Below are positions 2,505 through 55,283 of a stretch of DNA of 64,000 nt, one piece after another. The notes below the pieces were generated by a model. The model worked only from the letters and a program-made list of their open reading frames with translations, ran no database searches and had not been told where the DNA came from. The stretch is from Octopus vulgaris. Taxonomy: Eukaryota. The translations under genes and the position numbers were made by a program. Numbering within the stretch: the first letter of the stretch is position 1; each line of letters opens with the position of its first letter. The stretch lies in assembly GCA_951406725.2 (NCBI GenBank), contig OX597839.1, positions 8,804,001-8,868,000 of the forward strand. Direction: 5' to 3'.

Positions 2505-2690
2505 AAGATAGATCGTTAGCTCCTACACACATTTTTTTCTCTCCTTGTTTTTTTCTGTGTATCTTTCTGTCGAAGAGCGTAGGCTCGAAACGTAAAAGAA
2601 TTTTTTCTATTTCTGAATGCTATACAAATACATTTGTTTGTTTGTACTCCACCTGCCTTCGTCTTTTGTTTATTTTCGTAAACTTTCACA
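2505..2690 (+). mobile_element. About 190-bp hammerhead-bearing repeat, family H1 copy 1 (Penelope-like/retrozyme-type)
   Basis: Homologous to the reverse complements of 50770-50952 and 52798-52998. Starts ATAGATCGTTAGC, lies close to TA/TG-rich repeats, and contains a minimal hammerhead motif at 2562-2599. Confidence 0.7.
2562..2599 (+). ncRNA. Minimal type I hammerhead-like motif (A6U core variant)
   Basis: TCTTT-CTGTCGA-A-GAGC(GTAG)GCTC-GAAA-CG-TA-AAAGA: stem I TCTTT/AAAGA, stem II GAGC/GCTC, palindromic ACGT in place of stem III. Confidence 0.6.
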
Positions 2691-3294
2691 GTATATGTAA
2701 GTGTATAAGTGTATATATGTATGTCATCTGGTGTGCTGTGTGTATGTCTATGTTGTAAATGAAGGAAATTGTATATGTGTGTATGTATCTGTATGTTATG
2801 CATTTGTATGCATGCTGCAGTTACGTCAGTATGTATTAGTGTCAGAGTGTGAGTGAATGTGTGTGCATGTGTGTGTCCATTTGCATATGTACATGTATGC
2901 ATGTGTGCATACACATGGGTGTTTTCTAAATGTATGTGTGCACTTGTTTGCACATTTCTGTTCACAGGCTACATCTTACACAAATTGAGCATTTGTCTAA
3001 TTCTACTTTATAAGCCTCTTACTATCATACTCAACAATATTATACTACCACTCCACTCCACCAACACTCCACTACCACACCACTCCATCCCCACCTCTAC
3101 CACTGCACTTTCACTCCAGACCCATGCAGGAACCTGGCTAGAATTCTAGTCTTAACTCCTGGTTATCGAGTGGTGAGAAACAAACACAAACAGAAAAACC
3201 CGGGATGATCATGGCTAGCATTTCTTTAAGTTTTAATTGAACTTATTTCCTTAACTCATAAAATAAATAAATTAATTAATTAATATATATATAT

Positions 3295-3620
3295 AGGATC
3301 TTTTCGGTTTGAACGGCAATTTTTAAAAATAATTTCCACGTAACTAAACACTTTTAAACTTTGTATACTGGTAGAATGTGTTTATAAAACATATTTTTCT
3401 CTTGGCTTTATTGAGAAAATTCTATAGTTTGTAAGATATTTGTTGTTGTTTTTTCTTCAATTTCTGCAATTTCAACCAATCAATGATGTCTACTGGATGT
3501 GAAAACATTCTGTGCCGTATGAATATGTCCCTCGTTTAAGAAACAGATTGGGTTTATTTACATTTGTGAAGAAAAAAAAGATACCCTTCCCCCAACCCCT
3601 AACGCTAACCCTAACCCGGA
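3295..3620. mobile_element. Probable interspersed repeat fragment ending in degenerate telomere-like CCCTAA units
   Basis: Begins right after a (TA)n run and ends CCCAACCCCTAACGCTAACCCTAACCC; single copy in the window. Confidence 0.35.
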
Positions 3621-3700
3621 ACCATGTCATTAAGAAGCAAGCTTCTTGCCACTCAGCCGCACCTGCATCTCTGTATTTATCTTCCAGTCCATCCATCTCT

Positions 3701-4051
3701 CTCTTTACTCTTTTACTTCGACTGCGGCCATGCTGGAGCACCACCTTTAGTCGAGCAAATCAACCCCGGTACTTATTCTATCGGTCTCTTTTGCTGAACC
3801 GCTATGTGACGGGGGACGTAAACACACCAGCATCAGTTGTCAAGCAATGCTAGAGGGACAAACACACACACATACATATACATATATATGACAGGCTTCT
3901 TTCAGTTTCCGTCAACCAAATCCACTCACAAGGCATTGGTCGGCCCGAGGTTATAGCAGAATACACTTGCCCAAGATGCCACGCAGTGGGACTGAACCCG
4001 GAACCATGTGGTTGGTAATCAAGCTACTTACCACACAGCCACTCCTGCGCC
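3701..4051 (-). mobile_element. tRNA-derived SINE, family A
   Basis: Reverse complement gives the head GGCGCAGGAGTGGCTGTGTGG (A box) and GGTTCAGTCCC (B box), an internal TA/TG microsatellite, and an (AGTAAAAG)n tail. Confidence 0.9.
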
Positions 4052-4694
4052 TATCTACCTATTTTTTTTATTTAACCATATATTTCACTCTCTATTCATC
4101 TCCATCTATCCATACCCACCCACCCAAGCAACCAACCCACCAATCAACCTAGTATTTCTATATTTCTATCACTCCATTAATTTGGCTTCTTACTTCATCT
4201 TAACCTCAATTCAATTCAATCAAAGCAAGTTTCAAGTAGGTAGGCAGACAAGCAAGCACCAACACCAACACAAACCAATCCAAACTAGACCAAATGGAAA
4301 TCAAAAACAAAAGCCCCTACTACCACCATCGCCTTCCAAAACTACAAATAATATCCTTGCTACTGTTCACCATCACACAGCCACAATTGAAGATGTTTTT
4401 TTGTTGTTTTTAAATCAGTATAATCCATTAAAGAATTAATTAATACCAATGTAGAAGCAGAAAATATCTAAGAGGTCAGTAACTTGACTTGTCTGACCTC
4501 TTAACAAGACAAAACAACCTGAGAAGTTACAAGTCACTCTGCCTCCCCCTTACCGTTTTTACATTAATAAGATAACAGCTTAAGTATGAAGGAAATTTTA
4601 AGACAAAATCACTTCTTTCTTTACAGATGCATACACACACACACACTCACACACACACACACACACACACACAAACACACACACAAACACACAC

Positions 4695-5112
4695 ACATAC
4701 AAAAGCATATGCACAAACATCTATAAACATACACACATACACAAACCTTTATAAAGATGCACAAGCGCATACACATATATACACACACACACATATATAT
4801 ACACACACACACACACACACACATACAAAAGCACATTCACAAACATCTATAAACATACACACATACACAAACTTTTATAAAGATGCACAAGCGCATACAC
4901 ATATATATACACACACACACACTCACATACACATACAAAAGCACATGCACAAACATCTATAAACATACACACATACACAAACCTTTATAAAGATGCACAA
5001 GCGCATACACATATATATACACACACACACACTCACATACACATACAAAAGCACATGCACAAACATCTATAAACATACACACATACACAAACCTTTATAA
5101 AGATGCACAAAC
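4695..5112 (+). repeat. About 110-125-bp CA-rich minisatellite, about 4 copies
   Basis: The unit ACATACAAAAGCA...CATCTATAAACATACACACATACACAAACCTTTATAAAGATGCACAA recurs near 4695, 4821, 4931 and 5041. Confidence 0.85.
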
Positions 5113-52797: not shown

Positions 52798-52998
52798 AGG
52801 GAGTGTTTATGAAAAAAACAAAAGACAAAGACAGGTGGTGCACAAAACAAACAGATGTATTAGTATAACGCTCAGGAATAGAAAAAGTCTTTTACGTTTT
52901 GAGCCTACGCTCTTCTACAGAGAGGGACACAGAAAAAACAAGGAGAGAAACAAGGAGAGAAAAAAATGTGTGTAGTGGCTAACGATCTATCATGGCAT
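52798..52998 (-). mobile_element. Hammerhead-bearing family H1 copy 3, between (TA)n tracts
   Basis: Motif at 52889-52924, reverse complement CTCT-CTGTAGA-A-GAGC(GTAG)GCTC-AAAA-CG-TA-AAAG (G12A, probably inactive). Confidence 0.7.
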
Positions 52999-53387
52999 CT
53001 ATATATATATATATATATGTGTGTGTGTGTGTGTGTATATATATATATATGTGTATATATATATATATATATATATATATATATATATATATATATATAT
53101 ATATATATATATATATATATATATATATATATATATATATATATATATATATATATATAATTATTGAAGTAGATAAATGAATTATCTTATTACGGATAAT
53201 TCAAATGATAACCGATACCTGGGTAGCAAAAATCACAACAGAAAAAACACGGTTGAAGTTACGACCATGGGGCATAAAAACCGTGCCTTAGTGCGGAAAT
53301 TTGAAGTTTTATATATTAAGTGTAGGAAGAAATAGAGCGTTTGTCGAAAAGCTTGTTGTGCATTTTGTTGGAGAATTAAGTTCCTGG

Positions 53388-53473
53388 ATTTTCCTGAAGA
53401 GAAATCTGCAAAATGGACTCCTTATTCAATCCGAATTAGGGACTTTGCAGCCTTCGAAACATATGTAGAAAAT
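53388..53473 (+). ncRNA. Type I hammerhead ribozyme with an intact canonical core
   Basis: Stem I ATTTTC/GAAAAT; CTGAAGA; long stem II closed by G-C (GAA/TTC, CTGCAAA/TTTGCAG, TCCTTATTC/GAATTAGGGA); GAAA; palindromic stem III ACATATGT; GUA cleavage triplet at 53465-53467. Confidence 0.85.
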
Positions 53474-54439
53474 AATATAAAGGAATTTTGTTAAATCTTC
53501 GTTCAGCTCTATTTCTTCCTACAGTTAATATATATATATATATATATATATATGTATGTATGTATCCATATGTATAAGCAGAAAATAAAGAGGCATACAT
53601 ATAAAGTAGGGAAGTTTACAACAGAAAGATGTAGACGAAAGAGAATGAAAGAGAGCGACAGACAGACAGACAGAGAGACATAGAATGAAGAAGAGAGGAA
53701 ATGAAAGTAAATGAAAAGAAAAGAGGGTAAGTGAAAAGAGAGAGAGAGAGAGAGAGAGAGATTGATGTAAAGAGTGGAATCACTCAGTATAAAGACACAC
53801 GGAAAATATGGAGAACATCCTATAATAATAAGCAAGTGTGGGAGACATAAAAATATGTGGATATATGAATATACATGAAGACTGTCATATATATTCATAT
53901 ATTCACTTAGTCTTTTATATGTGTTACATACTTGCTTATTATAATAATGTGTCTTCCATGTTTTGTAGACGTCTTCATATCAATTCAGGTCTTCTTTGCT
54001 CAAATCCCATTCTTTTTCTTTCTTTTCTTCCCTTATTTTTTTCTTTTACCTTTTCCTTCTTTGCTTTCTTTTTTTTTTTTTTACTTCCTTTCTTTTCTTT
54101 ATCTAATTAACATATACCCTCTCCATATACATCTCCCTTTATCTTTTTATATACTTTAATATTTTTATAATGAAATATTTTATTTTCTGCGTACCACTTG
54201 TATGGTCAACCAATAAGATCCTTTCACTTTAGTTTTTGCAAAGCCTCTTACTCAATCAAAATGTAGGTATGAACATGCGCGCTTGCACGAATACTATGAA
54301 CCTTTTTACCCCCTTACTTTTACTCCCTCCCCTCACTTAGCGGTCATTCAAATAGCTTTTTTGTCTTAATAATGGTCAATCACACAGTAATTTCCCTTTG
54401 TATGATGGTCATTTTCCATAGCATTTTTTCCGATGGCCG

Positions 54440-54500
54440 GATGACCGAAGAGATGTTGGCATGGGTTTCCATCTTGGCATCCGAAACTGGGAGTTTTATC
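54440..54500 (+). ncRNA. Type I hammerhead motif (U4C variant)
   Basis: GATGA-CCGAAGA-GATGTT..ATGG(GTTT)CCAT..GGCATC-C-GAAA-CT(GGG)AG-TT-TTATC; stems I-III can be drawn. Confidence 0.6.
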
Positions 54501-55244
54501 ATGGCTACCAAATAATTGTCACATATTATATTTACAGATAAATTCCTCTATTTACATAATATTGAGGTCTCTTTCATTCTTTTGTTGTTTTACCATTTTT
54601 ATCAATATACATATACACATACACATATCTATATTATACACACTAAATTGTGTTTATATATGTGTTACATACAGAAAAAAATATTAGTACAAAGGTAAAA
54701 CACAGAATAAAACAAAATAAAGTAACAATCAGCTGTAGTTGATTGAGGACAATGATACAAAATATATATATATATATATCATCATATATCGTTTAACGTA
54801 TATATATATATATATATATATATACACACACACAAACATACACACACACATGTATGTATGCAAGCAATACATACATATATATTATATATATATATATATA
54901 TATATATATATATATATATATATATATATATATATACATATATACATATATGTTACATATTTTAGAGACACAATATACATATATGTATGTATTTATATAT
55001 GACTATTACTTAACTAAATAAAAGTACTGAGATGGTGTATGCATACGTAAATTGGGAAACAAGTTCACATACATATCTATCTAATAAACTTACATACAAC
55101 TGTGCTGTGCAAATAGACCCAGCGCTCCAAGCGCAAAGCCCTCTGTACAGGGGAACCTAAAATGGAGCTCAACTAAAACGAAGTGGTTAGTGACATGCAA
55201 GCAGTGAGTCGCTTGCCATCTTTGTATGATGAATGTCTGGAGAT

Positions 55245-55283
55245 ACACCTGATGAGACAGTAATAACTGTTGAAAGTAGGTAC
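55245..55283 (+). ncRNA. Degenerate minimal hammerhead-like motif
   Basis: CTGATGA-GACAG(TAATAA)CTGTT-GAAA-GTA; stems I and III are poor. Confidence 0.35.

Follow-up and report, generated by a model that had tools for sequence, protein, structure and literature searches.

Minimal type I hammerhead ribozymes have been described in the pseudo-long terminal repeats (pLTRs) of Penelope-like elements (PLEs), where they carry an extra base after A9, sit mostly in solo truncated copies and show low activity even as dimers (PMC4209133). The markers of the PLE clades, their inversions and their bias for TA tracts are described in PMC8557442, which states that the role of the hammerhead in PLEs is unclear and whose supplement contains Hydra-1_Obim, a (TA)n-inserting Hydra family of Octopus bimaculoides with an annotated hammerhead. 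The repeat annotation of Octopus vulgaris lists 190 Penelope-like consensi (6.83%) and 1,279 unclassified short interspersed element (SINE) consensi, and its supplement makes no mention of hammerheads (PMC13282606). We analyzed a stretch of 64,000 nucleotides of the O. vulgaris genome (contig OX597839.1 of assembly GCA_951406725.2, positions 8,804,001 to 8,868,000, forward strand; hereafter the window), in which seven hammerhead motifs are found. The host genome is 2.80 Gb in size, rich in microsatellites and assembled into about 30 large contigs. Six of the seven motifs are very probably hammerhead-type folds in the pLTRs of four PLE families (H1, H3, H4 and H5) that have long copies with reverse transcriptase (RT) and GIY-YIG endonuclease elsewhere in the genome; the remaining one (H2) is part of a tandem unit of 476 bp. 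The feature is debris of TA-targeting PLEs together with one retrozyme-like unit. The literature cited here already covers minimal hammerheads in PLEs, the targeting of TA and a Hydra element from Octopus; what is new relative to it is a fixed U at core position 6 of H1.

The customary hammerhead numbering, and with it the customary roles of G12 and H17, is used throughout. Cores were compared with the consensus C3U4G5A6N7G8A9 plus G12A13A14A15 (after PMC7151607). All seven motifs were found where a preceding sequence-only reading had placed them, each within a high-copy repeat, and they fall into five repeat families: H1 with three copies, H2 at 30565, H3 at 30814, H4 at 53388 and H5 at 54440. 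A first look at the genome gave about 1,500-3,900 candidates for each of them. The broad picture drawn by that reading, of several families of minimal type I hammerheads from Penelope-like or retrozyme retroelements with a bias for (TA)n, was borne out. Longer copies joined to an RT and GIY-YIG open reading frame (ORF), which it had proposed to look for, were found for H1, H4 and H5, and for H3 with remnants of GIY-YIG only. Its description of short, independent, non-coding elements has to be given up, in that long RT and GIY-YIG elements, truncated to their 3′ ends, account for H1, H3, H4 and H5. The five families, which it called unrelated, are indeed separate repeat families, but the proteins of H4 and H5 share 39% identity across 415 amino acids. 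Its "CUGANGA-like" cores are real at 30565, 30814 and 53388, whereas the core is CUGUNGA in the three H1 copies and CCGAAGA at 54440; the wording masked a family-wide A6 to U change in H1, and strict CUGANGA screens miss H1 entirely. At the family level, H2, H3, H4 and older H5 carry the consensus core, H1 and young H5 do not, and H17 is A, U or C. These hammerheads share with the published pLTR hammerheads (PMC4209133) the position in the pLTR, the short stem I, the extra base after A9, the palindromic stem III, the prevalence of solo truncated copies and the presence of many families in one genome. They differ from them (the core variant named there being U3-A8) in the family-wide U6 of H1, the C4 of young H5 and the 55-nt stem II arm of H4.

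Protein searches of the O. vulgaris genome gave at least 150 matches for each of three queries, and loci with long frames were picked from these. Twelve loci were chosen by their long RT frames; in each, an H1-like copy follows an open frame of 930-1,214 amino acids, and at 10 of them a second, direct H1 copy lies upstream of the frame. The ORF DNA of the 11 other loci is 98.4-99.7% identical to that of one of them (L216) over 3 kb. The H1 ORF matches RVT_1 above the Pfam cut-off and GIY-YIG weakly, and NCBIfam gave sub-threshold matches only; DKG, a CX2-5CxxC linker and YIG are present in 12/12 ORFs, in which the CCHH residues of GIY-YIG were read by eye. Its closest database relatives are 53-58% identical; named ones further down the ranking include a snail, an urchin and a coral. 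By these sequence motifs H1 is placed in the Neptune clade, from which, as represented by Neptune1_Ap in the alignment of the PMC8557442 supplement, it differs by its U6 hammerhead; relative to that clade it also stands out by about 10^5 copies including a young, near-identical subfamily, the assignment being made by motifs and without a tree. The subfamily seen in the window is itself linked to such an ORF, since a locus 95% identical to a window H1 copy (L009) extends upstream into the ORF end. In 40 random 10-kb stretches of the genome (400 kb in total) H1 had 19 matches, which corresponds to about 133,000 copies genome-wide (95% range 80,000-208,000, clustering ignored). At about 10^5 copies H1 is the most abundant PLE family of this genome, and it is still spreading. 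The young element is also present in contigs of 14 runs marked "RNA?", which has no bearing on its expression either way.

The U at position 6 is fixed or nearly so throughout the H1 family. Among 15,312 exact genome matches to an H1 29-mer, T occupies position 6 in 15,153 and A in 159; U6 is found in 53 of 56 distinct copies, and U6 together with U17 in all young intact copies. In contigs of four runs from four organisms, no alternative letter reaches 4% at position 6, and N7 and H17 vary. Likewise, among the H1 subfamilies N7 is A, U, G or C and H17 is A or U, never G. Consensi were built for three groups (39, 15 and 4 copies), with 10 loci chosen for A6 and duplicate loci excluded. Outside the ribozyme they differ at 47 of 154 columns, inside it at 1 of 30 constrained columns (p = 0.001), so that the core is more conserved than its flanks, as had been anticipated. 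The sole constrained change is of CpG type and occurs in the 4-copy group; further differences inside the ribozyme are at N7, H17 and one loop base. Copies with A6 are somewhat enriched in the older G7 group, and there may be a small A6 lineage within H1. A pattern scan of metagenomes gave 21 U6 stretches, 18 of them similar AT-rich hammerheads from other hosts (one adjoining A6 copies) and three GC-rich chance matches; these cannot show fixation, because A6 was not counted. No viral contig scanned contained the U6 pattern. A literature search on an A6U hammerhead core found none, although U6 may be listed in the work of Lunse et al. 2016 on variants of the PLE hammerhead, which the search did not cover.

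What does the fixed U6 mean for the ribozyme? Judging from its sequence, U6 likely makes H1 cleavage weak, while the fold is kept and the family spreads. The nearest parallel is the natural A6C hammerhead of phage Bcep176 (PMC3088659, PMC7151607), which likewise has a pyrimidine at core position 6; there C6 has been assayed in one phage sequence, and here U6 is read from the sequences of a high-copy animal retroelement. It seems rather unlikely that H1, though of the same PLE origin, carries in U6 a fully working variant (acting as a dimer, with Mn2+ or with a protein helper) whose cleavage and circularization are essential. Such a variant would agree with the variation of the subfamilies at N7 and H17, both left free by hammerheads, with the natural A6C variant that cleaves well with Mn2+ (PMC7151607) and with the U4C change tolerated in vivo in a viroid (PMC3088659). 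However, changes of A6, A6C included, sharply cut Mg2+ activity (PMC7151607, PMC3088659), Naiad PLEs spread without canonical hammerheads (PMC8557442), and the H1 insert ends described below ignore the cleavage site. The predicted fold of the young H1 monomer, moreover, has the GAAA box base-paired to U6 and U7, an A6 control misfolding too. Possible, although we lean against it, is that the hammerhead fold of H1 is kept under selection with U at the "invariant" A6, either as a new catalytic variant (dimer-, Mn2+- or protein-dependent) or as a non-cutting RNA handle. With about 10^5 copies, many intact full-length members of 98-99.7% identity and a fixed core change, H1 is a natural experiment on the role of the PLE hammerhead. 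An abundant TA-ended family with H1-like hammerhead architecture but with A6, and in some copies C4, was seen at L190:8665-9347, L185:5448-5727 and other loci, with 37 BLAST matches among the sampled loci.

The H4 and H5 copies were likewise traced to coding elements. H4 follows ORFs of 786-934 amino acids at 8/8 loci, and an H5-like copy follows the ORF at 15 of 17 loci, often in 2.59-kb tandems with inversions. The window's own H5 subfamily is linked to ORFs through two of 30 loci (L095 and L100). Pfam gave no match in the H4 and H5 ORFs, whose assignment rests on motifs and on likeness to published Hydra proteins. H5 carries every Hydra marker, namely RWK, DKT, the CxCX5C linker, CxxC..CxH, a unit below 3 kb (2.59 kb) and (TA)n, and by its sequence belongs to the Hydra clade. 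All these traits, and a hammerhead near the 3′ end, are shared with Hydra-1_Obim (PMC8557442), from which H5 is a different family because the hammerhead sequences differ. Young H5 has C4 in its core, and older H5 has the consensus. Young H5 also occurs as arrays of several units, tandem and inverted, that are 98-99% identical (L246-L257); dozens of genome matches score identically, which suggests very recent activity. H4 is Hydra-like in its motifs but atypical: RWL, DKT and CxxC..CxH occur wherever the frame extends far enough, but the CxCX5C linker before the endonuclease was found in 0/8 ORFs. In the ORFs of L227-L234, an Asn-rich low-complexity insert of about 200 amino acids lies between the RT thumb and the endonuclease, at the site of the usual Hydra linker. 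Compared with the Hydra clade of PMC8557442, H4 thus has an insert instead of the linker and is still TA-ended, which challenges the role in TA targeting proposed for the zinc finger of the linker (PMC8557442). The window H4 consists of a truncated forward copy to which a 3′ tail is joined in inverse orientation, a standard PLE layout, so that an invertible segment or a miniature inverted-repeat transposable element (MITE) was rejected for it. Nematis was rejected for H4 and H5. H3 follows a decayed GIY-YIG endonuclease on the same strand at 13 of 19 other loci, with one more partial; a CX2-5CxxC linker and YIGET, which would be expected of a Nematis or Neptune member, are found in these decayed copies. 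If the H1 fold is indeed kept under selection with U6, as considered above, the U6 H1, the C4 young H5 and the linker-less H4 are intact natural elements with which it can be tested whether PLE hammerheads need to cleave and what guides TA targeting.

Further hammerhead-bearing families were encountered among the sampled loci. One lies after a GIY-YIG ORF 55% like that of H4 (L060, reverse strand 2650-3080), two more are at L164:3921-4453 and L178:3184-3797, and another is found beside (AAT)n runs (L165:8010-8441, L140:2-1205, L160:2529-2808); in L140 a piece of ORF carrying DKG comes after it, and the family is possibly a Penelope/Poseidon-type PLE with a different target.

H2 is built differently. 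It is a 476-bp head-to-tail unit, of which two hammerheads lie in one direct array in L045 and in L053; upstream extensions of its 30 copies enter the preceding unit, up to about 1.5 units, and its 3′ ends fall at two AT-rich points. Covariation in its stems is seen at 6 of 20 pairs, a level that none of 500 shuffles attained, although kinship among the sequences can inflate this. Covariation was limited to one pair in H4 and to none in H1. Of the retrozyme/Penelope-like label given by the sequence-only reading, the retrozyme part applies to H2 and the Penelope-like part to H1, H3, H4 and H5, which are PLE 3′ ends. From the sequences, H2 is probably the only one of the five families that fits a retrozyme, and it is likely a non-autonomous passenger of the same PLE machinery. 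A head-to-tail array of near-identical 359-bp units, which is partly inverted, lies between TA tracts and holds seven canonical type I hammerheads, occurs at L151:2147-4790 (contig C1, 20.00 Mb) and looks like a young non-LTR retrozyme. Both H2 and this array share with animal non-LTR retrozymes (PMC7229834; 10.64898/2026.07.22.740005) short, low-GC head-to-tail units with one type I hammerhead per unit, no ORF being seen in either. The H2 unit is longer than the published monomers of about 300 bp, it mostly occurs as no more than 1.5 units, and it is known here as DNA. It is improbable that all five families are non-autonomous non-LTR retrozymes spreading through small circular RNAs. The canonical, covarying hammerhead of H2 in copies longer than one unit and the similar array in L151 would suit such an origin, as would the derivation of animal retrozymes from pLTRs (10.64898/2026.07.22.740005), yet H1, H4 and H5 run upstream into long 3′ untranslated regions and RT/endonuclease ORFs and H3 into endonuclease remnants, and the tandem periods of H1, H4 and H5 elements are 2.6-4.5 kb, so that this account fits H2 only.

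The proximity of TA tracts was tested against a control because (TA)5 tracts are common (535 in the 400-kb random sample). With (TA)5 scored within 9 nt of the 3′ end, against a background of 3.3% of positions, it was found in 7 of 9 random H1 copies, in agreement with the predicted enrichment. In all-copy counts, which include between-locus duplicates, it was found in 62/80 for H1, 51/59 for H4, 43/76 for H5 and 20/48 for H2. Of 16 random H1 copies, 7 had it ahead of the 5′ end. Only a few TA units are present at tandem junctions where terminal copies end in long TA tracts, and this would agree with short homology priming synthesis at a TA tract that has been nicked. The 99 H1 5′ ends all fall more than 10 nt away from the cleavage site, and the 3′ end is located about 96 nt beyond it; the ends thus ignore the cleavage site, and for this reason the H1 template would have spanned an uncut or re-ligated site. 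Inversions in H4, H5 and H2, the direct repeats at 10/12 H1 loci and the H5 tandems are the partial-tandem and pLTR traits of PLEs. We propose the following mechanism. Tandem or circular element RNA would be made, as published PLE work and the junctions seen here suggest; the endonuclease would nick a (TA)n tract, and a short AU-rich stretch about 100-240 nt downstream of the ribozyme site would pair at the nick, from which reverse transcription would then be primed. Copying would usually halt after a few hundred bases, so that solo hammerhead ends remain with TA or an inverted piece attached. Ribozyme action is predicted to be confined to dimers in tandem transcripts and to play no part in setting where insertions end. 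Such solo ends could sit among the 1,279 "unclassified SINE" consensi of PMC13282606.

Several points weigh against a PLE origin with hammerhead folds as described above. It is drawn from sequence. The loci were chosen by long frames and best matches, which biases them towards young copies, and the intact H1 and H5 elements are 78-82% identical to the window copies and are therefore relatives and not direct parents of them. The H1 conservation test involves three subfamilies with T-rich, mutable flanks, no pair of H1 shows compensatory changes, and the conservation could instead reflect a promoter or an RT handle; H4 contributes its single covarying pair only. None of nine predicted monomer folds is outright hammerhead-like, which gives no support, though it is expected for dimer-type motifs. 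For H2 no ORF was seen, its autonomous parent having been sought through the flanks of 30 copies only and not by protein, and H3 has no intact ORF in the copies seen and is not clearly TA-ended. Finally, that the TA tracts pre-existed at the insertion points is presumed.

The features of the window are collected in Table 1. Most window copies are damaged solos and are likely inert themselves: the H1 hammerheads at 2562 and 50859 are whole but for U6, and that at 52889 additionally lacks G12. The suggestion that they could yield self-cleaved or circular RNAs or cut an enclosing pre-mRNA is thus unsupported. Very improbable, too, is a use of the motifs by the host for cutting or regulating enclosing pre-mRNAs. 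Many of about 10^5 H1 copies must presumably be intronic, and two of those in the window lie 2 kb apart on the same strand, but copies occur on both strands and show ordinary decay (G12 to A, G at position 17, loss of CpG), being no better kept than others; nor was a host exon identified in the window, by a search that left short exons untested.

Table 1. Hammerhead-bearing copies, flanking TA tracts and related features, numbered from the first nucleotide of the window
Feature	Position	Strand	Details
H1 solo pLTR (Neptune-type PLE 3′ end)	2502..2696	+	81% to 52790 copy
Hammerhead of H1 copy 2502..2696	2562-2599	+	CUGUCGA (U6), extra A, 4-bp stem II, ACGU stem III, A17 at 2594
TA tract	30397-30444
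Short inverted piece of the H2 476-bp unit	30444-30457
H2, part of 476-bp retrozyme-like unit	30445..30766	+	between (TA)24 and (TA)14
H2 hammerhead	30565-30625	+	core canonical, stem III of 5 bp, position 17 (30619) is G
TA tract	30767-30794
H3 old pLTR fragment, PLE with C-terminal GIY-YIG	30795..30898	+	hammerhead about 30811-30856, canonical core, weak stem I
TA tract	50724-50753
H1 solo pLTR between TA tracts	50759..50952	-	hammerhead 50894-50859, CUGUGGA (U6), U17 at 50863
TA tract	50950-50961
TA tract	52744-52798
H1 solo pLTR between TA tracts	52790..53000	-	hammerhead 52924-52889, U6 at 52917, G12 to A at 52900 (copy-level damage)
TA tract	53000-53017
(TA)53 tract ahead of H4	53054..53159
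3′ tail of the H4 element in inverse orientation, a PLE-type 5′ inversion	53160..53338	-
H4 pLTR of Hydra-like PLE	53335..53528	+	hammerhead 53388-53473, best-preserved window copy
H4 hammerhead	53388-53473	+	canonical core, long stem II (one mismatch), palindromic ACAUAUGU stem III, A17 at 53467
TA tract	53529-53552
H5 pLTR of Hydra-clade PLE	54262..54606	+	hammerhead 54440-54500, CCGAAGA (U4 to C), U17 at 54495
Eighth motif, not counted as hammerhead	55236..55300	+	CUGAUGA and hairpin, single-copy DNA

A type I hammerhead descriptor with position 4 or 6 free was run with 20 shuffles as the null. It matched the window four times, at 30817 (canonical), 2567 and 50890 (both with U6) and 54445 (with C4), against 0-0.05 matches per shuffle; 52889 fails it by G12 to A, 30565 by G at position 17 and 53388 by the stem II mismatch, its core being canonical. 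The 400-kb random sample gave 24 matches and none when shuffled, seven of the 24 lying in one tandem array. Since one match per 16 kb in the window compares with one per 17 kb in random genome (22 kb with the array counted once), the window density is typical of the genome, and the "dense system" of the sequence-only reading is an ordinary one. The adjacency to (TA)n that it reported holds for five of the seven motif segments, which touch a tract of at least five repeats; 2502-2696 and 54262-54606 have degenerate TA ends only. The check by Rfam that it proposed gave no match for any motif, the hammerhead models being absent at the gathering threshold, at E ≤ 10 in two stretches and among the best 150 of 305 rows for the window. 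That the motifs are mere chance matches in AT-rich, microsatellite-rich DNA can practically be dismissed, in spite of the missing Rfam matches and of folding z-scores that are weak for most motifs, given the descriptor counts against shuffles, the fixed place downstream of PLE ORFs in four families and the covariation of H2. It does hold for the weak eighth motif at 55249, which is probably a chance match: it is single-copy, without stems I and III in the hammerhead register and without a family, and a family search returned itself and four matches of 33-40 nt outside the motif.

A de novo repeat search of the window was dominated by microsatellites. A repeat of 300-400 bp, present in several copies (36116-36523, 41727-42141 and 59822-60229) that are 94-95% alike and on both strands, contains CTGAYGA without a hammerhead fold. 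Beside an H1 copy lies a long imperfect palindrome of about 290 bp (52406-52699), which is MITE-like. Very high-copy SINE-like repeats, with up to about 200 matches among the sampled loci, occur at 51330-51490, 30950-31090 and many other places, often beside TA tracts.

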